A stretch of 64,000 nt of DNA from Methanomassiliicoccales archaeon (GTDB lineage: Archaea; Thermoplasmatota; Thermoplasmata; Methanomassiliicoccales; JAAEEP01), in contig JAAEEP010000001.1 in NCBI GenBank assembly GCA_013415695.1, positions 68,621 through 132,620 on the forward strand, in the 5' to 3' direction. Within the stretch, counting starts at the first letter, position 1, and each line of letters begins with the position of its first letter. The notes below the pieces were generated by a model. The model was not told the origin of the DNA, searched no databases, and saw nothing but the letters and a program-made list of their open reading frames with translations. Of this stretch, positions 3,772 to 38,614 are shown one piece after another. The position numbers and the translations under genes are program-made.

Positions 3772-4131
3772 ATGCTCGTAGAGGAATATCTCCCATTGGC
3801 GATTTTTGCCCTCATTGCGGTGGTCTTCCCAGCACTCAGTTTTTGGGCATCAAGGTTCTTCAGGCCTACGAAAAAGGGAGCCATGAGGAGCACCACGTAT
3901 GAGTGCGGAGAAGTGCCCATCGGAGAGGCGCAGATCCAGTTTCATGTCCAATTCTACATCTTCGCTATCATCTTCGTTATTTTCGATGTCGTGATCGTAT
4001 TCTTGATGATCTGGGCTCTTGTGTTCTCCGGGCTGCCCGACCTGGCGAAGATCTATATGGCCATCTTCCTTGCGATCCTTCTCGTGGGTGTTGGCTATGC
4101 ACTGAAGAAAGAGAAGGTGATTTGGATATGA
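3772..4131 (+). CDS. nuoA: NADH-quinone/F420H2 dehydrogenase-like complex subunit A
   Basis: 119 aa with 3 TM helices and the conserved TTYECGE motif. Its stop overlaps the nuoB ATG (ATGA). Confidence 0.85.
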   Translation: MLVEEYLPLAIFALIAVVFPALSFWASRFFRPTKKGAMRSTTYECGEVPIGEAQIQFHVQFYIFAIIFVIFDVVIVFLMIWALVFSGLPDLAKIYMAIFLAILLVGVGYALKKEKVIWI

Positions 4132-4685
4132 ACGACAACCCGAACGCTGTTGCAATGAATTCCAAGGACTTCATGGACTGGTCCAACAATGTCATAGATG
4201 ACATACTGAGGGCCACTCAGGCAAAGAAGGCTCTGGACAAGCTCATGCTTCCATTCTGGAACTGGTCCCAGAGGAATTCTATGTACCCACTTCACTTTGG
4301 CCTCGCATGCTGCGCATTGGAGATGGCTGCATCATCAGGTCCAAGATGGGACGCGGAACGTCTCGGTATCATATACAGGTCCTCGCCAAGACAGTGCGAT
4401 GTGCTCCTGCTTAATGGATGGATATCGAAGAAAGTGAGACCGGCACTCCGCAGGCTATACGAGCAGATGCCAGCCCCCAAGTGGGTAATTGCCATGGGTG
4501 AGTGCTCGATCTCTGGTGGACCATGGTACGATTGCTACAATGTGGTTCAGGGAGCGGATACCTTCCTCCCTGTGGATATCTACATACCTGGATGCCCCCC
4601 GAGACCTGAAGCGCTCATCGACGGTTTCCTCAAATTGCAGCAGAAGATTAAGGCAGAGGCAAAAGGGCCGTTCCTAGAGGACTGA
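4128..4685 (+). CDS. nuoB: Nuo/Fpo-like complex subunit B (20 kDa, N2 cluster)
   Basis: In-frame ATG at 4128 inside track ORF 3903-4685. Cluster ligands GLACCALEM, GECSISGG, PGCPPRPE. Confidence 0.9.
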   Translation: MNDNPNAVAMNSKDFMDWSNNVIDDILRATQAKKALDKLMLPFWNWSQRNSMYPLHFGLACCALEMAASSGPRWDAERLGIIYRSSPRQCDVLLLNGWISKKVRPALRRLYEQMPAPKWVIAMGECSISGGPWYDCYNVVQGADTFLPVDIYIPGCPPRPEALIDGFLKLQQKIKAEAKGPFLED

Positions 4686-4694
4686 GGTGATCAC

Positions 4695-5174
4695 TTGGCG
4701 GAGATAACAGCATGCAGTGGAAATTTGACAGGATTAGAGATTGCTGATGCACTGTCCAAGAAGTTCGCGGAGGGTGTCACCATTAATTCCGCTTCTCCCA
4801 GGAGAGTATACTCCCAGGTGAACAAGGAGGTCTTCCTGGAGGTGTGCAAGTTCATGAAGGACGAGCTCCTCTTCGATCATGCCTCCCTGGTTTCAGGAGT
4901 GGACAGAATTGACAGAATTCAGGCAATTTATCATATTACATCTTACATCAATAATTGCTGCCTCATGGAAATCGTGGTGGACCTAGATCATGAGGCCCCC
5001 GAAATTGATTCTGTAACCCCGCTTTGGGAGGGTGCGAATTACCACGAGAGGGAGACCTACGACATGATGGGTATAGTCTTCAAGGGACACCCAGATATGA
5101 GGAGGATCTTCCTCCCCGATGATACCAAATTCTATCCCCAAAGAAAGGACTTCAAGCTGAAGGAGGTGCCCTGA
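4695..5174 (+). CDS. nuoC: Nuo/Fpo-like complex subunit C (30 kDa)
   Basis: 159 aa. TTG start lies just downstream of GAGGTGATC. NuoC-type WEGANYHERETYDMMGIVF. Confidence 0.85.
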   Translation: MAEITACSGNLTGLEIADALSKKFAEGVTINSASPRRVYSQVNKEVFLEVCKFMKDELLFDHASLVSGVDRIDRIQAIYHITSYINNCCLMEIVVDLDHEAPEIDSVTPLWEGANYHERETYDMMGIVFKGHPDMRRIFLPDDTKFYPQRKDFKLKEVP

Positions 5175-5175
5175 A

Positions 5176-6258
5176 ATGGCAGAGATGTGGGTGAACATGG
5201 GTCCACAGCATCCATTCAACCATGGTTTGTGGAACCTCAGGGTCCTGATGGACGGAGAGACGATCAAGTATGCTGAACCCATCCTGGGCTACCTTCACAG
5301 GGGATGGGAGAAGAGTATGGAAAATAGGACTTATCCCCAGATCATACCTCTCTCTGACCGTCTCTGCTATGGTTCGTCCATGTCCTGGAGTCACCTCTAC
5401 TGCATGACCATGGAGGAGCTTTTTGACATCGAGGTTCCTGAAAGAGGGGAGTATATCAGGGTGATAGTCCTCGAGCTCCAGAGGATAGTCTCACATCTTC
5501 TTTGGCTCATGGCCTTCGGCGTGGACCTGGGTAATCTTACCGTGATGCTCTACGTGATAAGAGAGAGGGAGATGTTCCTAGATCTCCTTCAGAGCATCAC
5601 CGGAGCCAGGATGACATACAACTATCCTAGGATAGGTGGCGTGAGGAACGATCTTCCCCCCGATTTCGAGAGGGACTGCATCAGGGCTATGGATTACTTT
5701 CAGGGAAAGATTGACGATTACGAGAAGCTCTGTGACGGGAGCAAGATATTCAGGATGAGAACCGAGGGACTCGGTGTGGTGAAACCAGCCGATGCGATTA
5801 ACCTCGGGCTGACTGGACCCAATCTGAGGGCAAGCAGCGTTGATGTGGACATCAGGAGGGACGATCCCTATTCTGTCTACGAAGAGTTCGACTTCGATGT
5901 CTGTACCCATGATGCCTGCGACACCTATGCCCGTTACCGTGTGAGAATGGACGAGATGAGAGTCTCCTGTGATATCGTAAAACAGGCGTTAGAGAAGATC
6001 CCCGATGGGCCCGTTAGAGTGAAGGTCCCCAAGAACGCACCCAATAAGACAGCGGTGGCGAGGGTCGAGGACCCGCGGGGTGAGGGGATGATGTATGTGG
6101 TGGGCGATGGCACTGACAAACCATACAGGTTGAGCGTGCGCAGCCCGGTCTTCGTGTACGTATCCGCCGCGAACCACATGCTGAAGGGACACAAGATAGC
6201 GGATGTCCCATCGGTCATGGGCTCCATCGACATGTGCCTAGGCGAAACAGACAGGTGA
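5176..6258 (+). CDS. nuoD: Nuo/Fpo-like complex subunit D (49 kDa)
   Basis: 360 aa with GPQHPFNHG and GYLHRGWEK motifs. GGAGGTG SD upstream. Confidence 0.9.
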   Translation: MAEMWVNMGPQHPFNHGLWNLRVLMDGETIKYAEPILGYLHRGWEKSMENRTYPQIIPLSDRLCYGSSMSWSHLYCMTMEELFDIEVPERGEYIRVIVLELQRIVSHLLWLMAFGVDLGNLTVMLYVIREREMFLDLLQSITGARMTYNYPRIGGVRNDLPPDFERDCIRAMDYFQGKIDDYEKLCDGSKIFRMRTEGLGVVKPADAINLGLTGPNLRASSVDVDIRRDDPYSVYEEFDFDVCTHDACDTYARYRVRMDEMRVSCDIVKQALEKIPDGPVRVKVPKNAPNKTAVARVEDPRGEGMMYVVGDGTDKPYRLSVRSPVFVYVSAANHMLKGHKIADVPSVMGSIDMCLGETDR

Positions 6259-6262
6259 TCGC

Positions 6263-7330
6263 ATGGAACTATACACTTTTATAGAAGGCATCGTGGTCTG
6301 GCTGGTTAGCATCGTTCAATACATACTCAATGTGATCGGTCTCCACGGCCTGGCTGACTGGCTCGGCGGTGCGGAGATCGTCAATATATTGACATACCTT
6401 GGCCAGGCTTTGATCGTCTTCCTCGTTGGCTTCGTCATCTGTCTGACAATGATATGGCAAGAAAGGAAGACCCTGGGCAGGCTCATGGATCGGAGGGGGA
6501 CCAGAATCGGTCCCCTTGGCTATGCTCAGCAACTTGCAGATGGATTCAAGACCTTCCTAAAGGAGATCATCGTCCCTGACAAGGCTTGGGTATCTGGTTA
6601 CAACTGGGCCCTCATTATTCTGATCGCCTCTTCGGTTATCTTAGTGGGAATCATACCGCTCAGCGATGGTTGGTTCCTCTCCAGCACCCCTGCGGGACTG
6701 CTGCTTCTGTTTGCGGTATTCAGCCTTGCACCATTCGCCATCCTTATCGGCGGATGGGCGTCGAACAACAAGTACACCCTCATTGGGGGAATGAGATCCG
6801 CCGCTCAACTGATATCATACGAGGTCCCACTCCTGCTGTCCACAGTGGGCGTGATACTTCTCGCCGGGTCTCTCAGCTTCGGCGACATCGTTGCGGCGCA
6901 GGATACCATATGGTTCGTCATCCCCCAGATCATCGGTTTCATTATCTTCATGATCGCCATGAACGCGGAGGTCGAGAGGATACCTTTCGATCTTCCTGAG
7001 GCGGAGGCGGAACTGGTCGAGGGGTGGGGTACGGAGTACGGCGGCCTTAGATTTGGACTAATCATGTTCGCCGAGTATCTCAGGGGATATGCCGGTGCTG
7101 CTATCGCTGCCATCCTTTTCCTTGGCGGCTGGAATGGCCCCTACCTGCCCCCGGAGCTCTGGTTGCTCATTAAGGTATTCATCATATTCTTTGTCTTCAT
7201 CTGGATTAGGGGCTCCTTCCCAAGAGTCAGGACCGATCAGATCCTGAACATTGGATGGAAGTGGCTGATGCCCCTAGCGATGATCAACCTGGCCATCGCT
7301 GTGGCCTTCAAGATGCTGGGGTGGTTCTAA
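6263..7330 (+). CDS. nuoH: Nuo/Fpo-like complex subunit H (ND1)
   Basis: 355-aa polytopic membrane protein with EAEAELVEGWGTEYGG and RGSFPRVRTDQ motifs. Confidence 0.9.
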   Translation: MELYTFIEGIVVWLVSIVQYILNVIGLHGLADWLGGAEIVNILTYLGQALIVFLVGFVICLTMIWQERKTLGRLMDRRGTRIGPLGYAQQLADGFKTFLKEIIVPDKAWVSGYNWALIILIASSVILVGIIPLSDGWFLSSTPAGLLLLFAVFSLAPFAILIGGWASNNKYTLIGGMRSAAQLISYEVPLLLSTVGVILLAGSLSFGDIVAAQDTIWFVIPQIIGFIIFMIAMNAEVERIPFDLPEAEAELVEGWGTEYGGLRFGLIMFAEYLRGYAGAAIAAILFLGGWNGPYLPPELWLLIKVFIIFFVFIWIRGSFPRVRTDQILNIGWKWLMPLAMINLAIAVAFKMLGWF

Positions 7331-8070
7331 TGACAGAGGCAAAGCGATACAAGAGAAGAGAACCGCCGAAGCCTACGGGATATATAACCAAACCTCTGGG
7401 CGTCACTCTGAGACAAACCATCAAATCCACCATAAACAGGCCCAATACAGTCCTGTATCCATGGGAGAAGCTCCAGCTTCCTGACTGCTTCAGAGGGAGA
7501 CCGGGTCTGGTTATCCAGGAGTGTATTGGCTGCGGTATGTGCATGCGTATCTGTCCCAACAAGTGCATCGAGCTTGTTGAGGTCGATGTCCCTGAGAGGG
7601 GCAAGTGTAAACGCCCCCAGGTGGACCTAGGAAGATGCATGATGTGTGGCTACTGTGCAGAGTACTGCCCCACCGATGCAATGATCGTCACTCCAGAATA
7701 CGAGCTAGCTGCTACCAGCCGGAGAGAACTGATACTGGATCCCTTCGAGCTGATCCACGAGCACAAACCCGGCTACGAGGTTCACCGCGTCGAGGTCCTT
7801 CAGTCGGAGGCATCCAAGGGAAAGGACGCCGTGGAGTACCGCTTCATGGACGAGAAAGATGCACCAATACTGGACAATGACGCATGCATAGGTTGCGGTC
7901 GTTGCATGAAAGCTTGCCCCTCCGATTGCATCGAGATGGTCGAGGTGGGCAAGAACGAGAAAGGAAAGCCCATTAAACGGCCGAAATTCGATTTCACCAA
8001 TTGCGTGAGCTGCGAGAACTGCGTGCTCACGTGTCCCAAGGACGCACTCAAGATGAAGGAGGTTGTCTGA
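7330..8070 (+). CDS. nuoI: Nuo/Fpo-like complex subunit I with an extra C-terminal 2x[4Fe-4S] ferredoxin domain
   Basis: ATG at 7330 overlaps the nuoH stop by 1 nt. 246 aa with four CxxCxxCxxxCP motifs: CIGCGMCMRICP, CMMCGYCAEYCP, CIGCGRCMKACP, CVSCENCVLTCP. Confidence 0.85.
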   Translation: MTEAKRYKRREPPKPTGYITKPLGVTLRQTIKSTINRPNTVLYPWEKLQLPDCFRGRPGLVIQECIGCGMCMRICPNKCIELVEVDVPERGKCKRPQVDLGRCMMCGYCAEYCPTDAMIVTPEYELAATSRRELILDPFELIHEHKPGYEVHRVEVLQSEASKGKDAVEYRFMDEKDAPILDNDACIGCGRCMKACPSDCIEMVEVGKNEKGKPIKRPKFDFTNCVSCENCVLTCPKDALKMKEVV

Positions 8071-8337
8071 ATGGACTGGGAACTTCTATTCTTCCTGATA
8101 TTCGCGGCGATCACTATCGCTGCAGCGGTATCCATCATGTTCTCAAAAGACGTGGTCCGCTCTGTAATGTACCTAGCACTGACATTCATCGGGGTTGCGG
8201 TCATATTCTTCTTCCTGGAGGCCGAGTATGTCGCGCTTATCCAGATATTGATCTATGTGGGCGCGGTCACCGTTTTGATACTGTTCGGTATAATGCTGAC
8301 CAAAAGAAGACTGCTGGGTGGTGAGCGCGATGAATAG
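8071..8337 (+). CDS. nuoJ: Nuo/Fpo-like complex subunit J, N-terminal part (J1)
   Basis: 88 aa with 3 TM helices (ALIQILIYVGAVTVLILFGIM). Starts directly after the nuoI stop. Confidence 0.7.
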   Translation: MDWELLFFLIFAAITIAAAVSIMFSKDVVRSVMYLALTFIGVAVIFFFLEAEYVALIQILIYVGAVTVLILFGIMLTKRRLLGGERDE

Positions 8338-8563
8338 GCAACAGTACCTGGCTGGAATGTCGGTCCTGCTGCTTTCTATGCTCATCATAGGCTCTCTGAT
8401 AGTCTCGAGTTGGCCCGCGGGCGAGATAACCAACATCGGATTGGATGCCCTGGGAAAAGGGACGTTCGAGACCTATGGCGTCACATTCCTCGTAGTAGGG
8501 TTGGTCATGTTCACATCCATGCTAGGTGGCGTTTTTCTGGCCAAGGAGGATGATGAAGAATGA
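8330..8563 (+). CDS. nuoJ: Nuo/Fpo-like complex subunit J, C-terminal part (J2)
   Basis: ATG at 8330 (GTG at 8318 or 8321 is also possible) overlaps the J1 stop in another frame. Two TM helices. Its position between J1 and nuoK matches the split nuoJ1/nuoJ2 of other archaea. Confidence 0.55.
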
Positions 8564-8862
8564 TCCCCATGGAGTATTTCCTGGCCCTAAGCGCCATCCT
8601 GTTCGTCATTGGTGCCTACGGTGTGCTCACCAAGCGTAACGCTATCATCGTTCTCATGAGTATAGAGATCATGCTAAATGCAGCGAACATCAACTTCGTG
8701 ACCTTTTCGTCGTACTTCGACGACGTCGCGGGACAGGTGTTCGCTTTATTCTCGATAGCTGTGGCGGCCGCGGAAGTCGCGGTTGGATTGGCCATCCTTC
8801 TGAACCTGAACAGGGTCAGAGGAACGATCAATCTGGACGAGATACATCTGCTGAGGTGGTGA
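8560..8862 (+). CDS. nuoK: Nuo/Fpo-like complex subunit K (ND4L)
   Basis: 100 aa with 3 TM helices ([13 protein letters not shown]). ATGA overlap with the preceding gene. Confidence 0.85.
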
Positions 8863-8863
8863 C

Positions 8864-10801
8864 ATGGACATCATAGATTTCGCATGGCTAATACCGGTAC
8901 TTCCACTCATCTCGTTTCTGATCGTAGGCCTGTTCGGGAAGAAAATGCCCGAGGGTGGCGGATACGTCGCAATCATCTTCTCCCTGGCTTCAATGGTACT
9001 GTCACTCCTGATCGCCATTCCGGTACTGAACGGTACATACGGAGGAGTGTACGAGCAGAGTGTAACCTGGCTCGTACTATCTGACGAGTACAAGCTTGAT
9101 ATTGGCATATACATCGACCAGCTGACAGCGCTGATGCTCATCGTTGTCTCTGTGATCAGCACCCTCGTGGTGATCTACTCCATAGGGTACATGCACAAGG
9201 AGGGGGAGCGGAAGCCAAGGTACTACGCCGAGATCTCCCTGTTCATCGGGGTAATGCTTGGACTGATCCTGGCGAACAACTATCTCTGGCTGTTCATCTT
9301 CTGGGAGCTTGTCGGCCTATGCTCATATCTACTAATAGGATTCTGGAACCACAAGCCATCCGCGGCTTCGGCTGCCAAGAAGGCGTTCCTGGTGACGAGG
9401 GTCGGAGACATCATGTTCATGATCGGTATCATCATCCTCTTCACCACATTCAAAACGCTGAACTTCAGCGATCTCTTTGCCATTGAGGCGACGGGGACGA
9501 ATCTCGAACTCCTGACGCTCGCCACCTTCTTCATCTTTGGCGGTGCAATAGGAAAGAGCGCCCAGTTCCCGCTGCATGATTGGTTGCCCGATGCGATGGA
9601 GGGCCCCACCACAGTGTCGGCTCTAATCCACGCAGCAACCATGGTCAAGGCGGGTGTGTACCTGGTGGCGAGGTCATATCCACTGTTCGTACAGTGCCCT
9701 GAGACACTGCTCATTGTAGCGATAATCGGTGGCGTGACCGCGATATTCGCGGCATCCATGGCGCTTAACAATCCCAATATCAAACGGGTGCTCGCATACT
9801 CGACCATCTCTCAATTGGGATACATGATCCTAGCCCTTGGAGCAGGAGGCTACTTCTTCTACTATGGGAACCCGGCTGACGGTTACACGGCGGGCATGTT
9901 CCACCTAATGAACCATGCGTTCTTCAAGGCCTTGCTCTTCCTTTGCGCCGGGTCCGTAATACACGCTGTGGGAACAGAGGACATGCGACTGATGGGTGGT
10001 TTGCACAAGAAAATGAAGATCACATCATTTGCCATGCTCATAGGCGCCCTATCCATCTCTGGGATACCGATATTAAGCGGTTTCTGGAGCAAGGATGAGA
10101 TATTAGCGGCAGTCTTCGAAACAGGAGAAGTCAATTCCATATTCCTTCTGCTCTGGCTAATGGGCATCGTGACCGCGTTCATGACCGCATTCTACATGTT
10201 CAGACTGTGGTTCATGACATTCGCAGGAAAGGAGGGCGAGGTGTCAAAGCACGCTCACGAGTCCCCGAAGGTAATGACCGGACCCCTCGTGACTCTCGCT
10301 ATCTTCGCTGCGTTCTCTGGACTGGCTGTGCTCTTTGGTTTCGGACAGGTCATCTACTTCGGCCACCCCCATCACGCCGATGCGATAGAGATACTAACCG
10401 AGGTCTTCACCTCCCCGCTCACATACCTATCGATATTACTGGCAGTGCTAGGAGTTGTGCTTGCTTACCTAGTGTATTGCAAGAAGATCATCTCTTCAGA
10501 TTTCTTCGTCTCCTCACCCGGAACGAAGAGGATGCACAAGCTGCTACTGGACAGATACGGCTTTACTTGGGGATACAACGCCTTCGCGGAGAAGGTAGTT
10601 TACGGATTCGCCAAGGTTGTAGACAAATTCGACCAGAAGGGCATTGACGGCGTGGTCAACGGAATCAGCAATGTAATCGTTGGATTCGGACAGCGCTTCA
10701 GAAAAGTTCAGAGCGGAATGGTACAAGGATACGCCACGGTGGTGGTGGCAGGTATCGTGGCAATATTGCTGATACTATACATCACAGGAGTACTGGGGTG
10801 A
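8864..10801 (+). CDS. nuoL: Nuo/Fpo-like complex subunit L (ND5, antiporter-like)
   Basis: 645 aa polytopic. Motifs WELVGLCSYLLIGFW and GKSAQFPLHDWLPDAMEGPT, plus a long C-terminal lateral-helix region. Confidence 0.9.
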   Translation: MDIIDFAWLIPVLPLISFLIVGLFGKKMPEGGGYVAIIFSLASMVLSLLIAIPVLNGTYGGVYEQSVTWLVLSDEYKLDIGIYIDQLTALMLIVVSVISTLVVIYSIGYMHKEGERKPRYYAEISLFIGVMLGLILANNYLWLFIFWELVGLCSYLLIGFWNHKPSAASAAKKAFLVTRVGDIMFMIGIIILFTTFKTLNFSDLFAIEATGTNLELLTLATFFIFGGAIGKSAQFPLHDWLPDAMEGPTTVSALIHAATMVKAGVYLVARSYPLFVQCPETLLIVAIIGGVTAIFAASMALNNPNIKRVLAYSTISQLGYMILALGAGGYFFYYGNPADGYTAGMFHLMNHAFFKALLFLCAGSVIHAVGTEDMRLMGGLHKKMKITSFAMLIGALSISGIPILSGFWSKDEILAAVFETGEVNSIFLLLWLMGIVTAFMTAFYMFRLWFMTFAGKEGEVSKHAHESPKVMTGPLVTLAIFAAFSGLAVLFGFGQVIYFGHPHHADAIEILTEVFTSPLTYLSILLAVLGVVLAYLVYCKKIISSDFFVSSPGTKRMHKLLLDRYGFTWGYNAFAEKVVYGFAKVVDKFDQKGIDGVVNGISNVIVGFGQRFRKVQSGMVQGYATVVVAGIVAILLILYITGVLG

Positions 10802-10805
10802 TACC

Positions 10806-12311
10806 ATGTTCGATGACATACCAATACTATCAATCATCGTCTTTCTTCCACTGATAGGCGCAGTGATCGCCTTCGCCCTAGGCAACAACAAGAGGATGGC
10901 AAAGCTCATCGCCCTGATATTCTCGGCGATTACGCTTCTTCTCTCGCTCCTGCTACTCACTGAGTTTAACATGAGCACCGGGACTTTCCAATTCACGGAA
11001 AGCTATACCTGGATAGAGACGCTCGGAATCAGTTACAGCTTGGGTGTTGATGGAATAGGCCTGCTGATGGTCATTCTGACAACACTACTCTGTTTCCTGG
11101 CCATCCTATTCTCATGGGATGTAGAAAAGAGGACCCACGAGTACATGGGCCTCATGCTGGTGTTGGAAGTAGGAGTGCTGGGCGTATTCATGTCCCTGGA
11201 TTACTTCCTCTTCTACATCTTCTGGGAGGTCGTCCTCATCCCGATGTTCTTCCTGATAGGCATCTGGGGAGGACCCAGGAAGGAATACGCAGCCATCAAG
11301 TTCTTCATCTATACACATGTGGCGAGTCTGGCCATGCTCATAGCAATACTGGCCATGTACTTCGAGGCCAAACCCATGCTGGAGTCGCTGATAGGCCATG
11401 CAAGCTTTGGGATGCTCGACATCGCCTTGGTAAGCGGAAACTTCAGCTACATATTCCAGGTAGCCGTGTTCGGCGCGCTCTTCTTCGGTTTCGGAGTCAA
11501 GATGCCAATCGTGCCTTTCCATACTTGGCTACCAGACGCTCATGTGGAGGCACCAACTGCGGGATCGGTGCTTCTAGCCGGTCTCCTCCTTAAGATGGGA
11601 GCATACGGTCTGGTTAGAATTGCACTGCCGACACTTCCTGAAGGCGCAGAAGCTTTCGTTCCCATTATGCTGGCTATAGCGATATTATCCATATTGTACG
11701 GAGCGTTCGCCTCTCTAGCTCAAAGGGATCTGAAGAAGATGGTTGCGTTCTCTTCAATCAGTCACATGGGCATCGTACTGTTAGGATTCGCTACTCTATC
11801 TGAGATTGGAATCGCAGCAGGTGTGTTCCAGATGTTCGCCCACGGTCTCATCACAGCTGTACTGTTCATGATGTGCGGTGTCGTGCAGCATAAAGCGGGC
11901 ACGAGGGAGATACCACTTCTCGGTGGCCTTGCTCCAAAGATCCCAATCGCGGCTACTTTCATGACTATTGGGTTCTTGGCATCGCTCGGCCTACCGGGAA
12001 TGGTTGGTTTCATCGCCGAGTTCTCGGTTTTCGCGGCAACATTCGATGCCTTCGGATGGTTGCTGATCCTGCCGATCATTAGCGTTGCTATCACTGCTGG
12101 TTATTATCTTTGGGCGCTGCAGAGGACTATGTTCGGACCACTCACGGATAAGATAAATCTGTCTCATTTGAAGGATGTCAGCTGGTACGAAGCTGCCCCG
12201 TTGGCGGTTCTTTGCATCCTGATCGTGGTCTTCGGACTCCTTCCGGGATTGGCGTTCGACATGATCAGACCAGCGACTGAGATCGTGACAGGTCTACTGG
12301 GGGTGATCTGA
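10806..12311 (+). CDS. nuoM: Nuo/Fpo-like complex subunit M (ND4, antiporter-like)
   Basis: 501 aa with VKMPIVPFHTWLPDAHVEAPTAGS. GGGGTGAT SD upstream. Confidence 0.9.
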   Translation: MFDDIPILSIIVFLPLIGAVIAFALGNNKRMAKLIALIFSAITLLLSLLLLTEFNMSTGTFQFTESYTWIETLGISYSLGVDGIGLLMVILTTLLCFLAILFSWDVEKRTHEYMGLMLVLEVGVLGVFMSLDYFLFYIFWEVVLIPMFFLIGIWGGPRKEYAAIKFFIYTHVASLAMLIAILAMYFEAKPMLESLIGHASFGMLDIALVSGNFSYIFQVAVFGALFFGFGVKMPIVPFHTWLPDAHVEAPTAGSVLLAGLLLKMGAYGLVRIALPTLPEGAEAFVPIMLAIAILSILYGAFASLAQRDLKKMVAFSSISHMGIVLLGFATLSEIGIAAGVFQMFAHGLITAVLFMMCGVVQHKAGTREIPLLGGLAPKIPIAATFMTIGFLASLGLPGMVGFIAEFSVFAATFDAFGWLLILPIISVAITAGYYLWALQRTMFGPLTDKINLSHLKDVSWYEAAPLAVLCILIVVFGLLPGLAFDMIRPATEIVTGLLGVI

Positions 12312-12312
12312 G

Positions 12313-13755
12313 ATGGATCTAACGGCTGTACTTCCTGAGATCATCATGATCATCTTCGCAGCGGTCCTTCCAGCGGTATACCTGGGAACCAAGAACGACA
12401 AGATGGTCGCTGGCATATCAATTGCAGGCATCTTGATAGCAATGGCCACTGTGGGCCAGTTCCTCTGGAACGGCGCTTCCCCGGTGGTGTTCGAGAATCT
12501 GCTGCAGCTGGACGCGTTCTCTGCACTCTTCATGCTAGTGTTCCTGATCGTTGCCCTTTACGTGGTGATAGCGTCTGTCAGATACATTGAGAAAGAGAGG
12601 CACCTAGCCGAGTACTACACGCTGATCATGTTCGCAACGGTCGGTATGATGGTGGTGGCCTCCGCCACTGATCTCATCACCCTGTTCGTTGGAATAGAGC
12701 TCACTAGTCTCTCTTCATTCGCTCTTGTGGGATTCCGCAAGAAGGACAAGCGCGGAGCGGAGGCGGCGACCAAGTACTTCGTGATCGGTGGTCTTTCCTC
12801 TGCGATCTCCCTGTACGGCATTTCACTGCTGTACGGAGTGACCCATACGACCAACATCGCAGAGATTGGGGCGGTCGTTGGAGACATCACTGGATTGGGA
12901 CCCGCATTGTACATTTCATTGGTGATGCTTATCGCCGGATTCGGGTTCAAGGTCGCGATCGTACCCTTCCACATGTGGGCACCTGATGTGTACGAGGGCG
13001 CTCCTACCCCAATAGCCTCGTTCCTGGCAGCAGGTTCCAAGAAGATGGGTCTTGTAGCGCTGTTCAAGATCTTCCTGATAGGGCTCTTTGCCATCAAGGC
13101 CGATTGGGAAATAGCGGTGGCAGTCATTGCCATTGCCACCATGACCCTTGGTAATATCATGGCCGTGAACCAGACCAGCATCAAGAGGATGTTGGCCTAC
13201 TCAAGTATCGCTCAGGCAGGATACATACTAATCGTGCTTCCCATAGGCACTGACTACGCCCTGATGGGTGGGATATTCCACATCATCACCCATGCCTTCA
13301 TGAAGGGAGGCGCCTTCCTCATCGTGGCCGGTCTTTCGATGTCCGCTCTTGGGGAGAATATCGCTGATTACAAGGGACTGGCAAAGCGCACTCCCTTGCT
13401 GGCTCTGGGCATGGCGATACTTCTGTTCGCTCTTGCTGGAATACCCCCATTATCGGGATTCGCCAGTAAGGTCGTACTGTTCTCCAGTGCAGTGGACGCC
13501 TCGATGATACCTGCTGACAATTGGATGATCTGGCTAGCCATCGCTGGTGTGCTCAACAGTGCCTTGTCCTTGTACTACTACGCTCGAGTGGTCAAGTACA
13601 TGTATGTTGAGAAGGGTCCGGAAAGCAAGATCAGGATTCCAACAACTGTGGCCATAGCCATATTCATCTGCGTGGTGGCGACTGTGATTATTGGAATATA
13701 TCCCGAACCCATCGTCGATGCCTGCCAGGCAGCGGCAACAGCGTTCTTCGCTTGA
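12313..13755 (+). CDS. nuoN: Nuo/Fpo-like complex subunit N (ND2, antiporter-like)
   Basis: 480 aa with FKVAIVPFHMWAPDVYEGAPTP. Last gene of the operon. Confidence 0.9.
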   Translation: MDLTAVLPEIIMIIFAAVLPAVYLGTKNDKMVAGISIAGILIAMATVGQFLWNGASPVVFENLLQLDAFSALFMLVFLIVALYVVIASVRYIEKERHLAEYYTLIMFATVGMMVVASATDLITLFVGIELTSLSSFALVGFRKKDKRGAEAATKYFVIGGLSSAISLYGISLLYGVTHTTNIAEIGAVVGDITGLGPALYISLVMLIAGFGFKVAIVPFHMWAPDVYEGAPTPIASFLAAGSKKMGLVALFKIFLIGLFAIKADWEIAVAVIAIATMTLGNIMAVNQTSIKRMLAYSSIAQAGYILIVLPIGTDYALMGGIFHIITHAFMKGGAFLIVAGLSMSALGENIADYKGLAKRTPLLALGMAILLFALAGIPPLSGFASKVVLFSSAVDASMIPADNWMIWLAIAGVLNSALSLYYYARVVKYMYVEKGPESKIRIPTTVAIAIFICVVATVIIGIYPEPIVDACQAAATAFFA

Positions 13756-13906: not shown

Positions 13907-14875
13907 ATGATGCCCCTTAGCTGGGATGAACCAATCTCAGAAGAACTGCTGATGGTGGAGAATGAGATCCGCCGGAACGTGCAGTCTCAACAGGAGATGC
14001 TCACCGAAATCTCCATGCACATCATAGGCTCAGGTGGCAAGAGAATCAGGCCTGGAGTATCCCTTTTGGCATATCACGCTGTAGGGGGGCAGAAACCAGA
14101 CGAGATCATAGGTATCGCGGCCGCCTTCGAGATTATTCACTCCGCCACGCTCATCCATGACGACATCAACGATGGAGGGCATACCAGACGAGGTGTGGTA
14201 ACCGCTTACAGGAAGTATGGTGTCCAGCAAGCCCTGATAGCGGGCGATTTCCTTTTCGTGAAAGGGTTCAGACTCGGAGGAAGTCTAGGCCAGGAACTTG
14301 TGGACGTGATAGCCGACGCCTGCACTGGAATGGCGGAGAGCGAGATATTACAAGGCCAATACGAGAAGAACCCTTCGACATCGTTGGATGTTTATATCAA
14401 GATAATCAAAGGGAAAACTGCGAAGCCGTTCGAAGCGGGTGCCCGAACCGGGGCAACACTAGGTGGGGGTTCATCTGAGCAGGTGAATGCCTTGGGATTG
14501 TTCGGTCTCAACCTGGGGATCGCATTTCAGATCATCGATGATATCCTAGATATTACGGGTGACGCGTCGGTTCTTGGAAAGCCCAGGGGAATGGACTTCT
14601 TGGAGGGAAAGCCGACCCTGCCTCTGATACTCGCACTGAACAACGGCTGCAATGGTCTGAGACTCAAGGAGCTTTTCGTCAAGAAAGAGAAGGATACTGA
14701 AGAGATAGAAGAGGTGCTTGAGTACCTCTCCCATTCTGACGTCTTGGAGGAAGCCAGGAGATACGCTCGTACCTACGCTTCGAATGCGGTTGACTCGCTT
14801 GATATCATCGCCGAGTCGGAATATAAGGAAGCACTCATCAAACTGGCCGATAAAGTTGTAAAAAGGAATTTCTAA
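13907..14875 (+). CDS. trans-polyprenyl diphosphate synthase (chain length undetermined)
   Basis: 322 aa with both Asp-rich motifs (TLIHDDINDGG and FQIIDDILD). Small residues (A, T) at positions -5/-4 before the first motif. Confidence 0.9.
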   Translation: MMPLSWDEPISEELLMVENEIRRNVQSQQEMLTEISMHIIGSGGKRIRPGVSLLAYHAVGGQKPDEIIGIAAAFEIIHSATLIHDDINDGGHTRRGVVTAYRKYGVQQALIAGDFLFVKGFRLGGSLGQELVDVIADACTGMAESEILQGQYEKNPSTSLDVYIKIIKGKTAKPFEAGARTGATLGGGSSEQVNALGLFGLNLGIAFQIIDDILDITGDASVLGKPRGMDFLEGKPTLPLILALNNGCNGLRLKELFVKKEKDTEEIEEVLEYLSHSDVLEEARRYARTYASNAVDSLDIIAESEYKEALIKLADKVVKRNF

Positions 14876-14954
14876 TCTGGATTTGCTCAATATTCCCAAG
14901 AGGATGACGATGCTTGATCCTTGTTAGGATGGATTGGATCATGGAGATTCGGAT

Positions 14955-16037
14955 ATGATAGAGGATGCCGATGTTGTGGTTGTGGGAGCGGGACCAGCGG
15001 GAAGCACTGCGGCTGAGCATGCGGCCCTCAACGGTGCCGAGGTTGTCCTTCTCGAAAGACGAGAGGAAATCGGCTTACCGGTCAAGTGCGGCGAGTTCAT
15101 GCCCTCTGTGAGTGAGATAAAGGGCATCTTTCCCATGGCTGATGAATTGGAGTCTCTTTTCGATTTGCCAAACGACCTAATCTCTCTTGAGACCCGTTTG
15201 ATAAGAATCTGGTCGCCCAAGCAGAAGAGTTTTGAGATACCGTTCTCAGGCTATACCACAGACCGGGATAGGTTCGATCAGTTTCTTGCTAGAAAGGCTG
15301 AGGATGCTGGAGTCAGAATAATCAGAGGATGTTCTTGTCAATCTGTAGAAGGTAATACGGTTATGACAGATAATGGACCGATCAGAGCAAAGGTCATAAT
15401 TGGGGCGGATGGTCCACTATCCCGGGTAGCTCGTTCGGTGGGGATTCCAAAGGCAAAGGACCTTTGCCCTGCAGTTACTGCCCAGACCAAGGGTGATTTC
15501 GAGGACGTATGCGAGATGTTCTTCGGTAGCATCGCCCCAGGTGCTTACGCCTGGATAATACCCAAGAAGAATGGTGCAAATGTGGGTCTTGGCATATCGC
15601 CCAGATTCGCCAAGAAGAGTGTCAAGGAGTATTTCTGGTCCTTCGTGGAGGAAAGGGGATTAGAAGTGGATCGGGTGAAGGGTAAGCACGTCCCAATGTC
15701 CGGACCGGTGAAACGATCTGTAGTTGGAAATACCTTGGTGGTGGGTGACGCCGCCGGGCATGTCATGGCAGTTAACGGGGGAGGAATTCCCATAGCGATG
15801 ATCTGTGGGAGGATAGCGGGCAAGTCAGCCGCCAAGACTGCTCTGAAAGGAGCATCGCTTGAACTCTACGAATCGATTTGGAAGAGGCAGGTGGAGAAAC
15901 CATTGAGGACTGCGGTTAGGTCCAAACGATGGGCGGACATATGCTGGGGGAGCCCTTTAAGGTTGGAGATGGCAATGACTTTTCTAGGCAAGCGGAGAAT
16001 GGGCAACATGATCCGCTGCAAGTCCGTCTTCCCCTAG
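14955..16037 (+). CDS. geranylgeranyl reductase family FAD-dependent oxidoreductase (paralogue 1)
   Basis: First ATG at 14955 (the track uses TTG at 14934). VVVVGAGPAGSTAA dinucleotide fold, GAYAWIIPK, and VGDAAGHVMAVNGGGI. Confidence 0.85.
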   Translation: MIEDADVVVVGAGPAGSTAAEHAALNGAEVVLLERREEIGLPVKCGEFMPSVSEIKGIFPMADELESLFDLPNDLISLETRLIRIWSPKQKSFEIPFSGYTTDRDRFDQFLARKAEDAGVRIIRGCSCQSVEGNTVMTDNGPIRAKVIIGADGPLSRVARSVGIPKAKDLCPAVTAQTKGDFEDVCEMFFGSIAPGAYAWIIPKKNGANVGLGISPRFAKKSVKEYFWSFVEERGLEVDRVKGKHVPMSGPVKRSVVGNTLVVGDAAGHVMAVNGGGIPIAMICGRIAGKSAAKTALKGASLELYESIWKRQVEKPLRTAVRSKRWADICWGSPLRLEMAMTFLGKRRMGNMIRCKSVFP

Positions 16038-34150: not shown

Positions 34151-37093
34151 TTGATGTCTGAAGAGGTGGCGGTCATCGGTGGTGGCATTTCGGGTGTCCA
34201 AGCTGCACTGGACTTGGCCAAAGCTGGAGTCTTGGTCCACCTCATCGAAAGGGGGCCAAGCCTCGGGGGGCATATGGCTCAGCTGGACAAGACATTTCCA
34301 ACCAACGACTGCTCCGCATGCATACTATCCCCCAAGCTTGTCGAGGCACATCGTCACCCCTTGATCAGGGTTTGGACCCTGACAGAGGCAGTTGACCTGC
34401 AAGGCAGCCCCCCAGATCTCACTCTCAGGGTTAGGGTCAAACCTCGTTTTGTCAGAGAGGACAGGTGTGTTGGATGTGGAGAATGTGCGAACAAGTGTCC
34501 CTCATCTGTGAAGAGCGAGTTCGAGCTTGGTCTATGCAGAAGAAAGGCCATATACATACCCTTCGCGCAGGCCGTTCCATTGAAGTATACCATCGATCCT
34601 GAGCACTGCCTCAAGATCAATGAAAACAAGTGTGGAAACTGCCAGAAGACATGTCCAGCTGACGCAGTAGACTTCGGCATGGAGGAGAGGGAAGAGAAGT
34701 TAGAAGTTGGTGCGGTCATCGTATCCACAGGCTTCGATCAGTTCGACCCAGAGAAAATATCTCCATATCACTACGGCGAGAATCCGAATGTGATGACAGC
34801 ACTGGAGTTCGAGAGGATCCTCAGCCCCTCGGGCCCCACAGGCGGTCACCTCGTGACGAATGATGGGTCCACTCCTAGGAGGCTCGTCTTCGTCCAGTGC
34901 GTGGGTTCCAGGGATAGGAACTACTGCGAACACTGCTCGAGGTTCTGTTGTATGGCTTCCCTCAAGCAGGCGATGATTGCCCTTGAACACGAGCCATCGA
35001 TCGAGGAGGTGACCGTGTGCTATATGGACCTGAGGAGCTATGGCAAGGACTTCGACAGGTACCGGGACCATGTCATGGGAAAGGGCATAAGGTTGATCAG
35101 GGGTAGGCCATCTGAGGTTAATTTAGATCCCCTGGGAGTAAGGATAGAGGACGTGGAGGGAGCTTCGATCAAGGATATCGAAGCAGATATGGTTGTTTTG
35201 GCCATGGCAGCAATACCTTCGAGGGGAATTGGTGAACTGGCGGATGCCCTTAATATCGAACTGGACGATGGCGGCTTTATTAAGACCATGGCATCTAGCG
35301 ACGGACCCCTGGCCACCTCTAGAAGGGGCGTGTTTGCTGCAGGATGCTGCACCGGTCCAAAAGACATACCGGATAGCGTCTGTGAAGCCTCAGCGGCGGC
35401 TTCCTTGTCGCTCACTCTTTTACCTAATAGAAAACCAAAGACCTTGAAGAAGCCCAAAGTCCGTGATGTGTCTGGCGAGATCCCAAGGACAGGTGTGTTT
35501 GTATGCAGATGCGGGACGAATATCGCCTCGACAATTGATGTTCCGGCGGTTGTGGAGGCCGCTTTAAAACTAGAGGGTGTGGCCTATGCTGAGGAGAACC
35601 TCTTCACATGCTCCGAGGCAGCTCTGGATGAGATGGCCACCAGGATACGAGACGAAGGTATCAACAGAGTCGTGATAGCTGCCTGCACACCTCGTACCCA
35701 CGAGCCGATCTTCAAGGACACCTTGGAGAAAGCAGGCATTAACCCTTATCTGCTCGAGATGGCCAACATCAGAGATCAGTGCTCATGGGTTCACCAGGGG
35801 CAACCAATTGAGGCGACAAGGAAGGCCATAGACCTTGTCAAGAGCGCAGTGGCCAAGGCAAACCAGCTTGAGCCATTGCAGACCCAGACCGCAGAAATCA
35901 TCAGGGAGGCAGTTGTTGTGGGAGGTGGACCGGCAGGTCTCTCCGCCGCGAGGGATATGTCCAAGCAGGGTTTCCGAGTGCACTTGATCGAATCGCAAAA
36001 CGAGCTTGGAGGAAGGATGGATGAGATCCACACGTCGAGTGAATTCGGGATCGATCGTATATCAGCTACATCCCTCCTTGAAGGTCTTGACGTTGATATT
36101 TCAAGAAACATCAAGATCGAATCAATCTCTGGATCCGTAGGGGACTTCAATATCGTCCTTAATGATGGTCGAGAGATCAAAGCAGGTGCAATAATCTTGG
36201 CCCCCGGGGCGGATCTGCCTGACTGCAGCGATAAAGAGGACAGAACGATAACCAGTCTCGAACTGGATAGGATGCTTAGAGAAGGAACACCTCTGCCCAA
36301 GAGCGTTGCTTTCGTGCAGTGCGTTGGAGTGCGTAATGAGAGATTTGGCTGTTCCCGATTCTGCTGCAAGAAGATGTTGGAACAGGCCAAGACGCTCGTC
36401 TCTATGGGAATGACGGTGAGCGTGCTACATAAGGATATCATGGCATTTCAGAAGGAAGGCGAGGCACTCTACAGGGATGTCTCAGAAAAGGGTGTGAGAT
36501 TCTACAGGATAGACGGTGAGCCTGACATCTCATCAGAAAATATATCTTTCCAATCTGTCACCGATGGCAACATCACCATTCCAGTGGAGATGGTAATAGA
36601 ATCTATTGGGATGATTCCCTCTGAATCCAACAGGGATCTCAGCCTCCAGCTCAAAGTCCCGTTGAGCAGGGAAGGGTTCTTCCTGGAGAAGCATCAAAAG
36701 CTAGCACCTGTGGAGTTCGCGGTTGACGGGATATTTATGGCTGGATGCGCCCAATATCCTAAGGATCTTTTTGAGAGCATGGTTCAGGGATCGGCTGCAG
36801 CGGCCAAAGCAGCAGGTCTTCTTTCAATGAAAGTTATAACGACCCCGGGCCAGATTTGCGTCGTCGATGAGGAGAGGTGTAGAGGTTGCGGCGAGTGTGA
36901 ATCACTTTGCAGCTACGGAGCTGCCCGATTGAGAGAGATCTCTGGAAAACAGGTATCCCATATAGAGGAGAAAATGTGCAAGGGATGTGGTCTCTGTGCG
37001 GTTTCATGCCCAAGCAACGCCATCGAAGCCCGAGGGTTCACGATCGAGCAGATCGACGCCCAAATCGATGCACTTCTGGGGGCTGAGCGATGA
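34151..37093 (+). CDS. hdrA: heterodisulfide reductase subunit A-like flavoprotein, tandem-fused (980 aa)
   Basis: Two FAD folds (VAVIGGGISG, AVVVGGGPAG). Two VQCVG...CSRFCC motifs. One DCSACILSPK. An inserted ferredoxin (CVGCGECANKCP, CGNCQKTCP). An internal HdrA N-domain-type segment (VFVCRCGTNI...AACTPRTHE...RDQCSWVH). A C-terminal ferredoxin (CRGCGECESLC, CKGCGLCAVSCP). Confidence 0.9.
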   Translation: MMSEEVAVIGGGISGVQAALDLAKAGVLVHLIERGPSLGGHMAQLDKTFPTNDCSACILSPKLVEAHRHPLIRVWTLTEAVDLQGSPPDLTLRVRVKPRFVREDRCVGCGECANKCPSSVKSEFELGLCRRKAIYIPFAQAVPLKYTIDPEHCLKINENKCGNCQKTCPADAVDFGMEEREEKLEVGAVIVSTGFDQFDPEKISPYHYGENPNVMTALEFERILSPSGPTGGHLVTNDGSTPRRLVFVQCVGSRDRNYCEHCSRFCCMASLKQAMIALEHEPSIEEVTVCYMDLRSYGKDFDRYRDHVMGKGIRLIRGRPSEVNLDPLGVRIEDVEGASIKDIEADMVVLAMAAIPSRGIGELADALNIELDDGGFIKTMASSDGPLATSRRGVFAAGCCTGPKDIPDSVCEASAAASLSLTLLPNRKPKTLKKPKVRDVSGEIPRTGVFVCRCGTNIASTIDVPAVVEAALKLEGVAYAEENLFTCSEAALDEMATRIRDEGINRVVIAACTPRTHEPIFKDTLEKAGINPYLLEMANIRDQCSWVHQGQPIEATRKAIDLVKSAVAKANQLEPLQTQTAEIIREAVVVGGGPAGLSAARDMSKQGFRVHLIESQNELGGRMDEIHTSSEFGIDRISATSLLEGLDVDISRNIKIESISGSVGDFNIVLNDGREIKAGAIILAPGADLPDCSDKEDRTITSLELDRMLREGTPLPKSVAFVQCVGVRNERFGCSRFCCKKMLEQAKTLVSMGMTVSVLHKDIMAFQKEGEALYRDVSEKGVRFYRIDGEPDISSENISFQSVTDGNITIPVEMVIESIGMIPSESNRDLSLQLKVPLSREGFFLEKHQKLAPVEFAVDGIFMAGCAQYPKDLFESMVQGSAAAAKAAGLLSMKVITTPGQICVVDEERCRGCGECESLCSYGAARLREISGKQVSHIEEKMCKGCGLCAVSCPSNAIEARGFTIEQIDAQIDALLGAER

Positions 37094-37506
37094 ACTTCGT
37101 CCCAAGAGTGGTGGCATTCTGCTGCAATTGGTGTGCCTATGCTGGAGCTGACCTGGCAGGGGTTTCAAGGTGCCAATACACCCCGGAGACAAGGATTATC
37201 CGGGTGATGTGTTCAAGTCGGGTGGATCCTGCCATGGTTCTTAGATGCTTCGAACTGGGGGCAGATGGGGTAATGGTACTTGGGTGCCACATCGGTGACT
37301 GTCATTACTTAAAGGGGAACGAGGAGGCCGAGAAGAGAATGGAGAGGACCCGGGAGATTATGGAGCTTCTTGGTATCGATGAACGGCGCTTGCTGCTTCG
37401 TTGGATCTCAGCTTCCGAGGGTGAAAGATTCGCCCAGACTGCCGATATGTTCGTTTCCACTCTGAAGGAATTGGGACCACTGAAGGAGGAACAGAATGAG
37501 GATTGA
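37090..37506 (+). CDS. mvhD: MvhD-like (methyl-viologen-reducing hydrogenase delta subunit family) [2Fe-2S] protein
   Basis: 138 aa with FCCNWCAYAGADLAG and VMCSSRVD. ATGA overlap with hdrA. Confidence 0.85.
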   Translation: MNFVPRVVAFCCNWCAYAGADLAGVSRCQYTPETRIIRVMCSSRVDPAMVLRCFELGADGVMVLGCHIGDCHYLKGNEEAEKRMERTREIMELLGIDERRLLLRWISASEGERFAQTADMFVSTLKELGPLKEEQNED

Positions 37507-38614
37507 TGACAGAGCTAGGCAGCTGGGCGTTTCCGGATGCGTCACCTGTGGCCGTTGCACATGGTCATGCCCGATCTCGAGAAGACCGGGAGATTTCTCA
37601 CCTCGAACCCTGGTGGAAAGATTTCTCCGAGAGGGACAGGTGCCTGAGGACAAGGGCATCTGGAGCTGTACCAACTGCGCCATGTGCAGTGAGGTCTGCG
37701 ATTCGGGCGTGCGATTTCATGAGTTTATCAGGGATCTGAGGACTGAGATTGTCAATGATGTTCCTCCTGAGATGACGCATGGAGGCATCATTCCCTATGT
37801 CAGGAGGCTGACCTCCATGCCTCATATCTCACCAAGGAAGAATACATGGATAACTGATTCCATGGAACTGGATCCTGAATCTGGAACGATGTTATTCGTT
37901 GGTTGTATTCCCTACTTCGATGTAATGTTCAGAGATTTCCGTGCGGATCTCCTCGAAATACCACGAGCCGCAGTATCACTCCTGAATGCCATGGAGGTGA
38001 GACCAGCCTTGATGGAGGAGGAGAGATGCTGTGGACATGATGCCTATTGGATAGGTGATATGATAACATTCGAAAGCCTTGCTAGACTCAACATAGAGGC
38101 GATCGAGGAAAGGGGAATTGAAAGGGTTGTATTCACCTGTCCAGAAGGATATTGGACCTTCAAGGAGCTGTACCCACGTCTAAATGGCCCCCTGGGATTT
38201 GAAGTCAAGAGCCTCACGGAACTTCTAGCAAATGCCATCGAAGATGGATCGGTCGTCCTTGAGAGAAGTGAGAAGAAGATAACATTCCAGGACCCTTGCC
38301 GCCTAGGCAGGTACTCCAGCATAATTGACGAGCCTAGGTCGATAATCGATGCCCTGGGAAGGAGAATGGAAATGGGTCGGACAGGACGACTGTCCGCCTG
38401 CTGTGGCCACTCAAACTGGGTGAATTGTGACACATATACCAGGGATTGGCAGCTGGAAAGGTTGGGGGAGGCAGAGTCTACGGGCGCTGAGGTTCTGGCC
38501 ACCGCCTGCCCGAAATGCCTGATACATCTGACCTGCGCCCAGCGCAACTTGTCCGAAAAAGGAATCAAGATCGAGGACATCCATGTGATGGCCGCGTCTG
38601 CTCTAAAACTCTGA
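37496..38614 (+). CDS. HdrD-like Fe-S / CCG-domain disulfide reductase (HdrC-HdrB fusion type)
   Basis: 372 aa. CVTCGRCTWSCP and CTNCAMCSEVC, then two CCG-type regions (ERCCGHD, SACCGHS, ACPKC). 11-nt overlap with mvhD. Confidence 0.8.
   Translation: MRIDDRARQLGVSGCVTCGRCTWSCPISRRPGDFSPRTLVERFLREGQVPEDKGIWSCTNCAMCSEVCDSGVRFHEFIRDLRTEIVNDVPPEMTHGGIIPYVRRLTSMPHISPRKNTWITDSMELDPESGTMLFVGCIPYFDVMFRDFRADLLEIPRAAVSLLNAMEVRPALMEEERCCGHDAYWIGDMITFESLARLNIEAIEERGIERVVFTCPEGYWTFKELYPRLNGPLGFEVKSLTELLANAIEDGSVVLERSEKKITFQDPCRLGRYSSIIDEPRSIIDALGRRMEMGRTGRLSACCGHSNWVNCDTYTRDWQLERLGEAESTGAEVLATACPKCLIHLTCAQRNLSEKGIKIEDIHVMAASALKL

Follow-up and report, generated by a model that had tools for sequence, protein, structure and literature searches.

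How electrons enter the 11-subunit, headless enzymes related to complex I has long been debated as an open problem (PMC3144371, PMC11238625). In the Methanomassiliicoccales, methanogens of guts and wetlands, such a headless complex is the central energy-conserving pump. We approached the question through one gene, nuoI/fpoI, located in a window of 64,000 nucleotides from a Methanomassiliicoccales archaeon (contig JAAEEP010000001.1 of assembly GCA_013415695.1, forward-strand positions 68,621 to 132,620); coordinates below are counted from the first letter of this window. We show that the encoded subunit, as read from its translation, carries the ligands of four [4Fe-4S] clusters where two are usual. 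The extra domain would, with a probability of roughly 60%, serve the headless 11-subunit Fpo-like complex as a built-in electron entry wire for reduced ferredoxin.

The gene occupies the position expected of a NuoI-type gene, in the order nuoH-nuoI-nuoJ. Its ATG overlaps the nuoH stop codon as TAATG, and its TGA stop (8068-8070) abuts the ATG of nuoJ at 8071. We place the start at 7330 because of this overlap and because orthologues begin at the same residue; a start further upstream, at 7255, was rejected on the same two grounds. A preliminary description of the locus had read here a NuoI/FpoI homologue of 246 amino acids (aa) with a second cluster pair, exactly four CxxCxxCxxxC motifs and two repeated stretches, all of which is borne out by the translation, the profile scores and the gene position. 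The first pair consists of motif 1, CIGCGMCMRICP (C65-C75), and motif 2, CMMCGYCAEYCP (C103-C113), and the second of motif 3, CIGCGRCMKACP (C186-C196), and motif 4, CVSCENCVLTCP (C225-C235), while the repeated inter-motif stretches of the two modules read CIELVEVDVPERGKCKRPQVDLGRC and CIEMVEVGKNEKGKPIKRPKFDFTNC. Pfam recognizes four Fer4 stretches that make up two dicluster domains. The NCBIfam model for NuoI, TIGR01971, matches with 150.5 bits against a cut-off of 113.05 and aligns aa 29-139 to profile positions 4-119 of 121; the FpoI model NF040612 scores 108.1 bits against a cut-off of 180, below its curated threshold.

The N-terminal module follows the NuoI pattern of two CxxCxxCxxxCP motifs with a hairpin of about 27 residues between them and an N-terminal helix before, and its motifs are predicted to bind clusters N6a and N6b. 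Behind it come the canonical NuoI C-terminal segment, in which E125 and L141 are invariant across the orthologue alignment, then an acidic linker, and finally the C-terminal module. The latter is near neutral (mean pI 7.3) and holds a conserved basic hairpin (G207-N209-K211-I215-K216-P218), which sets it apart from acidic soluble ferredoxins. The protein is a NuoI by its profile score, its fold and the position of its gene; with four complete motifs and 16 invariant cysteines it departs from the family's rule of exactly two [4Fe-4S] clusters, and this departure is real and strongly conserved. Each module also carries a fifth cysteine four residues past its first motif: C79 (7564-7566, in CPNKC) is conserved in at least 90% of orthologues and C200 (7927-7929, in CPSDC) in 70-90%. 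The equivalent position in canonical NuoI is presumably an alanine.

A search of ~5.8 billion proteins returned 253 matches at E ≤ 1e-10, and we examined the best 120. Almost all of these 120 are 242-260 aa long and covered over their full length, with identity down to ~50%, and where they are named they come from metagenome-assembled genomes of Methanomassiliicoccales, Methanomassiliicoccaceae or Methanomethylophilaceae. Four CxxCxxCxxxC motifs are present in all 119 complete orthologues of this set, the sole exception being a fragment, so the notion that the second cysteine set is a genuine feature kept among close orthologues stands. When 70 orthologues are aligned (mean column identity 52%), none of the 16 cysteines varies, and neither do the prolines after motifs 1, 2 and 4; P197, after motif 3, is found in at least 90%. 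A frameshift or fusion artefact is excluded, since the same length recurs in hundreds of independent assemblies.

The Methanomassiliicoccales saturated a scan with one genome per GTDB species, which yielded 79 loci, every one of their type, the closest being 92% identical (DATKXF010000046, 'Methanomassiliicoccales archaeon SMAG_U14184'). All loci among the 79 that were sufficiently long displayed the same nuo gene order by tblastn. Three records labelled Bacteroides salyersiae (L054), Anaerovoracaceae bacterium (L060) and Eggerthellaceae bacterium (L076) carry a Methanomassiliicoccales-type fpo operon; these contigs were probably mis-binned.

More distant relatives share the trait. A HMMER search run without filters on 1.84 billion cluster representatives gave 20 clusters at E ≤ 1e-30, and the best matches include four-motif proteins that are NuoI-like but divergent and 244-359 aa long. 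Larger versions exist as well: a 317-aa NuoI homologue has five motifs plus a CxxHxxCxxxC variant and thereby three ferredoxin modules (L082, 5514-6467), and another of 514 aa has six Cys motifs, again three modules, and a long charged N-terminal extension (L081, 10001-11545). In an alignment of 16 divergent relatives (23% mean column identity), the 16 cysteines are again invariant. The divergent genes of five contigs (L081-L085) sit in nuoA(B)CDHIJ(J)KLMN-type operons with no EFG or FpoF genes in cis, and a further contig (L088) shows a partial operon only, nuoH-I-J-K, with no nuoA-D upstream. One of the five is labelled 'Thermoplasmata archaeon' (L084), and versions with four to six motifs are found in other Thermoplasmata or in unassigned archaeal contigs. 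Two-cluster NuoI is also present in Thermoplasmatota (for example P0296, 136 aa), so that the four-cluster trait characterizes only part of the phylum.

Two side observations concern these divergent contigs. The operon that encodes the 317-aa protein has no nuoB between nuoA and nuoC. On two independent contigs (L080, 9367-14677; L086, 72-7048), a gene for a four-cluster NuoI-like protein of 269 aa directly follows a NuoB-like gene, and further on lie genes for a luciferase-like (possibly F420-dependent) oxidoreductase, an FeS-assembly-P protein and a Rieske protein. An HdrD-like gene (Fer4_8 + CCG) is found 3-5 kb on, with no membrane nuo genes nearby; the set may encode a NuoB/NuoI module, soluble or split, with a link to an HdrD-type enzyme.

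Where did the second domain come from? The two modules (aa 53-127 and aa 171-246) share 48% identity over 65 residues (E = 6e-19; 48-53% across comparisons), and in most orthologues their motif spacings are 38 (N-module) and 39 residues (C-module). A chance pattern of cysteines is excluded by this alignment together with the invariance of all 16 at both 52% and 23% mean column identity. When the C half alone is compared with 18,950 NCBIfam models, the top match is TIGR01971 (profile positions 39-102). Compared with single domains, the C-module reaches 67 bits with its own N-module and 62-64 bits with the NuoI cores of other lineages, against 43-53 bits with the best polyferredoxin domains (9sfi_T, MvhB). 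Because the two-cluster class of this module classification included fragments of four-cluster proteins, only cleaned comparisons were used. The C-module is thus closer to the N copy of its own family than to any other family. The internal duplication of the ferredoxin module proposed in the preliminary description holds up, the protein's own N-module being the closest non-orthologous match and having matching motif spacing.

The C-module could instead have been captured from a polyferredoxin-type gene. Its summed HMMER scores to MvhB, FwdF and 9sfi_T do exceed those to NuoI chains in the PDB, and the long hairpin between motifs occurs in these polyferredoxin domains too. However, the whole-chain MvhB and FwdF scores are higher because several domains add up; taken singly, the domains reach at most 53 bits against the 67 of the own N-module, the N-modules of the family outscore the polyferredoxin modules, and a NuoI model is the top family match for the C half. 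The two modules also have in common CIE(L/M)VEV, the KRP hairpin features and the fifth Cys four residues after the first motif. We therefore regard capture as quite unlikely.

The age of the duplication can be approached through the divergent relatives. Across lineages, C-modules score higher against each other than against N-modules in 12 of the 15 divergent relatives compared, which speaks for one ancient duplication; within one protein, N-to-C identity averages 38% in this comparison. These sequence comparisons indicate that the NuoI core was duplicated in tandem once, before the Methanomassiliicoccales and related Thermoplasmata split, with later additions in few lineages.

We built an AlphaFold2 model with the 70-sequence alignment (mean pLDDT 83.7, pTM 0.71, linker pLDDT ~84-88). 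It contains a helix at aa 17-34 and two ferredoxin folds; strands 80-99 form a beta-hairpin in the first and strands 201-220 in the second. The pTM suggests a defined arrangement of the two domains relative to each other. In a Foldseek comparison with the PDB, the N half matches NuoI, TYKY, NdhI and HycF chains with probability 1.00 (TMq ~0.33), and only the polyferredoxin FwdF extends over both halves (~200-218 aligned columns, low TM). The best PDB sequence matches of the C-module are likewise archaeal polyferredoxins, MvhB and FwdF. A comparison with polyferredoxins, which consist of several tandem 2x[4Fe-4S] domains and no other functional core, points both ways: two domains stand in tandem and the C-module has these PDB matches, while the N half is a NuoI with its membrane-arm helix and the C-module is nearer to that N half. 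No solved four-cluster subunit I was found in the PDB by sequence search or Foldseek, where the matching NuoI chains cover the N half only.

The rest of the operon bears on what such a domain might do. The NuoB translation has the cluster N2 ligands CC...C...CP and NuoD has the complex I-type GPQHP and DMCLGETDR where NiFe-binding motifs would be, so the complex is of the respiratory type and not a hydrogenase. None of nuoE/F/G, fpoF or fpoO is found in the ORF list inside the operon, and FpoF and FpoO are reported absent from Methanomassiliicoccales genomes (PMC4153887). For the headless Fpo of Methanomassiliicoccus, reduced ferredoxin is described as the donor and HdrD as the final acceptor (PMC7374477, PMC4153887), and for Methanomassiliicoccus luminyensis the oxidation of reduced ferredoxin by this complex is described (PMC7374477).

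In the reading that we favor, the N-module would keep the canonical route from N6a through N6b to N2. The position of the C-module is suggested by E. coli, where the NuoI tail (residues 139-180) buries 805 Å2 on NuoG, 421 on NuoE, 348 on NuoB and 292 on NuoF (PMC8357420). HMMER aligns residues 28-164 of E. coli NuoI with residues 38-168 here, so that the tail corresponds to about residues 145-168. Because the E. coli tail aligns with the linker, the latter would emerge from the NuoI core at the surface that contacts NuoG/E/F in the 14-subunit complex I, and since the complex lacks NuoEFG and FpoF, the extra domain should occupy their space beside N6a. Filling the place of the absent input module, the C-module would lengthen the cluster chain outward from N6a and accept electrons from reduced ferredoxin or a ferredoxin-reducing partner, and these would then pass down the normal chain to the coupling site.

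Two further lines agree with an entry wire. Two independent decorations at the same terminus in other lineages, the Methanotrichaceae tail and a single-cluster domain, support the subunit I C-terminus as an input port. The charge of the C-module, with its near-neutral pI and basic hairpin, weakly supports electrostatic docking of ferredoxin. Several points weigh on the other side: the placement depends on one positional homology, to a tail that is specific to E. coli; the net charge of the C-module is not clearly basic; polyferredoxin domains are also fairly similar to it; and the complexes of Methanosarcina and Methanothrix function although they lack a domain of this kind, so that ferredoxin or F420 input does not generally require one.

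The same extra clusters could serve as an exit, the domain docking soluble HdrD to form a ferredoxin:heterodisulfide oxidoreductase. A published model has the Fpo-like complex contact HdrD directly (PMC7374477), HdrD is encoded within the window, and in the other lineage described above two independent contigs carry a four-cluster NuoI-like gene and an HdrD-like gene 3-5 kb apart. However, the position suggested by the E. coli tail is on the input side, and this homology favors an entry wire over an exit dock: electrons would both enter and leave distally, bypassing N2 and the coupling site, and no proton translocation would be expected. Within the order, moreover, fpoI and hdrD are not linked (hdrD lies within 10 kb of fpoI in 0 of the 79 loci), and the conserved polyprenyl synthase and reductase neighbors hint at a lipid-soluble acceptor. 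For lack of a path through N2 and of gene linkage, we hold an HdrD dock to be very unlikely.

An input-side position would also fit a tethered ferredoxin that takes its place at the site where MvhADG-HdrABC or another donor enzyme reduces ferredoxin, making the free protein dispensable, much as polyferredoxins do in Hdr-Fmd supercomplexes. The MvhB and FwdF matches of the C-module and the unusually long HdrA in the window are in line with this. Against it, M. luminyensis membranes are reported to oxidize added ferredoxin (as summarized in PMC7374477), the domain is also present in Thermoplasmata contigs without Hdr or Mvh genes in the sampled flanks, and no linkage of fpo with hdrA or mvh was seen in flanks of up to 10 kb at the 79 loci. 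We consider this variant unlikely. Its stronger form, in which a permanently tethered ferredoxin docks directly on bifurcating MvhADG-HdrABC (or HdrD) in a membrane-anchored supercomplex, so that bifurcated low-potential electrons arrive at the proton pump with no diffusible carrier, is about equally unlikely. If it were true, the steps in Thermoplasmata from two to four and then five to six clusters would represent an independent and ongoing evolution of a complex I input arm, paralleling the gain of NuoEFG or FpoF.

The clusters might finally lie off the pathway, in a cap that replaces NuoG sterically, shields N6a or stabilizes the arm, or in an electron reservoir like N7 or N1a. Such roles have precedents, as the E. 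coli NuoI tail is purely stabilizing (PMC8357420) and complex I has off-pathway clusters such as N7, but 16 cysteines kept invariant across very divergent lineages and growth to five or six motifs fit the extension of a wire better. A structural role thus seems rather improbable.

Fe-S domain fusions are common. The searchable literature yielded no account of a subunit I with four clusters, with the proviso that an earlier mention in primary papers cannot be excluded. That literature calls the Methanomassiliicoccales complex 'FpoABCDHIJKLMN-like' with no mention of extra clusters, and fpoI occurs together with Methanomassiliicoccales or luminyensis only in a gene table or for another organism. 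A cofactor-bearing extension on the distal subunit offers a testable candidate for the entry site: with four clusters in subunit I and N2 on NuoB, it predicts five [4Fe-4S] clusters in the peripheral arm, not three. It also constrains where ferredoxin, HdrABC and HdrD could bind. The series of NuoI proteins with two, four, five and six motifs in Thermoplasmata suggests that the input arm can grow by domain duplication. As a sequence marker, the architecture would allow annotations as '4Fe-4S binding protein' to be replaced by 'FpoI, four-cluster type'.

Coordinates of nuoI/fpoI, its parts and the neighboring genes in the window (ORF, open reading frame)
Feature	Position (nt)	Strand	Description and basis
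nuoI/fpoI	7330..8070	+	246-aa protein, four [4Fe-4S] binding motifs (translation, Pfam, NCBIfam)
N-terminal helix, aa 17-34	7378..7431	+	AlphaFold2 model; region aligns with NuoI/NdhI/TYKY chains
N-module, aa 56-124	7495..7701	+	Canonical NuoI ferredoxin core (TIGR01971, invariant Cys, Foldseek)
Motif 1, C65/68/71/75	7522-7554	+	
Motif 2, C103/106/109/113	7636-7668	+	
C-terminal segment, aa 125-145, and linker, aa 146-177	7702..7860	+	Canonical NuoI segment followed by acidic linker (~32 residues)
C-module, aa 178-246	7861..8067	+	Duplicated 2x[4Fe-4S] ferredoxin domain (Pfam dicluster aa 179-242)
Motif 3, C186/189/192/196	7885-7917	+	
Motif 4, C225/228/231/235	8002-8034	+	
nuo/fpo-like operon	3772..13755	+	12 tightly packed ORFs = 11 subunits, order nuoA-B-C-D-H-I-J(N)-J(C)-K-L-M-N (ORF list)
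nuoA	3772-4131	+	ORF list
nuoB	~4131-4685	+	ORF list
nuoC	4695-5174	+	ORF list
nuoD	5176-6258	+	ORF list
nuoH	6263-7330	+	ORF list
nuoJ (split)	8071-8337 + 8318-8563	+	ORF list
nuoK	8560-8862	+	ORF list
nuoL	8864-10801	+	ORF list
nuoM	10806-12311	+	ORF list
nuoN	12313-13755	+	ORF list
Polyprenyl synthase (PPS)	13907-14875	+	Directly 3' of nuoN (ORFs)
Geranylgeranyl-reductase-like flavoprotein (GGR)	14934-16037	+	Next after PPS (ORFs)
HdrA, long	34151-37093	+	Pfam scan
HdrD	37496-38614	+	Pfam scan
HdrC	39940-40431	+	Pfam scan
HdrB	40376-41251	+	Pfam scan

Downstream of the operon, at least 65 of the 79 Methanomassiliicoccales loci carry the PPS-GGR pair after nuoN, and PPS also stands after nuoN in the divergent operon of the 317-aa protein. 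The pair possibly serves the synthesis of a lipid-soluble carrier and so bears on whether HdrD is reduced directly. Further on, the Pfam scan confirmed the Hdr genes that had been placed about 26 kb downstream of nuoI; their products are candidate redox partners of the complex. At 980 aa and with two FAD/Rossmann regions, the HdrA of the window is of unusual length, and such a form has been reported for Methanomassiliicoccales (PMC4153887). HdrD (372 aa) is followed by an ORF with an EF-Tu domain 2 that overlaps the end of hdrD by ~100 nt, then by HdrC and HdrB. Within the operon, nuoJ consists of two overlapping ORFs of 88 and 81 aa, a split also called in four divergent operons (L081-L084), whereas it is fused in a fifth (L085, 160 aa).

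Compared with known systems, the subunit resembles NuoI, Nqo9, TYKY (NDUFS8) and NdhI in its N-terminal helix, its hairpin-bearing 2x[4Fe-4S] core, its place between nuoH and nuoJ and its profile and fold matches. Those proteins hold two clusters (N6a/N6b), whereas here ~100 extra C-terminal residues carry a second motif pair. The FpoI of the Methanosarcina F420H2 dehydrogenase (NF040612) belongs to an archaeal complex I-like enzyme with the order fpoABCDHIJKLMN; it differs by its two clusters and a model of 135 positions, and here the operon has no fpoF or fpoO. The extension, in keeping with the preliminary description, is absent from characterized two-cluster proteins: the FpoI model has 135 positions, and only the N half is matched by the chains of E. 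coli, Thermus, NDH-1 and mitochondria.

A parallel comes from the headless, ferredoxin-dependent Fpo of Methanothrix/Methanosaeta, likewise an FpoF-less complex whose subunit I is extended at the C-terminus (P0305 and relatives). That extension is a Lys/Ala-rich low-complexity tail without Cys, whereas the one described here is predicted to be a folded two-cluster domain. Welte and Deppenmeier (2011) reportedly proposed the Methanothrix/Methanosaeta tail as the ferredoxin contact. Lys/Ala/Pro-rich low-complexity tails of 60-100 residues were also observed on two-cluster NuoI/FpoI proteins among P0305, P0298-P0300 and P0304 (Methanotrichaceae-type), P0139, P0142 and P0145, and P0152 bears a C-terminal single-cluster ferredoxin-like domain on a two-cluster NuoI/FpoI. 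The E. coli NuoI tail (139-180) emerges from the core at the equivalent point and extends over the surface of NuoG/E/F/B, but it is free of cofactors and purely stabilizing, in a complex that has the NuoE/F/G input module.

Relay proteins offer a further comparison. HycB of formate hydrogenlyase and the Eha/Ehb polyferredoxins pass electrons between enzymes, or into or out of a NuoI-type subunit. With these, and with MvhB and FwdF, whose domains the C-module resembles, it shares the character of a [4Fe-4S] relay chain; they are separate polypeptides with 4-14 clusters, whereas here one dicluster unit, NuoI-derived, is fused to NuoI. Finally, cyanobacterial NDH-1 has an 11-subunit core without NuoEFG, in which ferredoxin electrons enter at the NdhI end (NdhS/V/O), and both the sequence and the structure comparison rank NdhI among the top matches to the N half. 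There, ferredoxin is bound by cofactor-free extra subunits, whereas in the Methanomassiliicoccales the extra clusters are built into subunit I itself.

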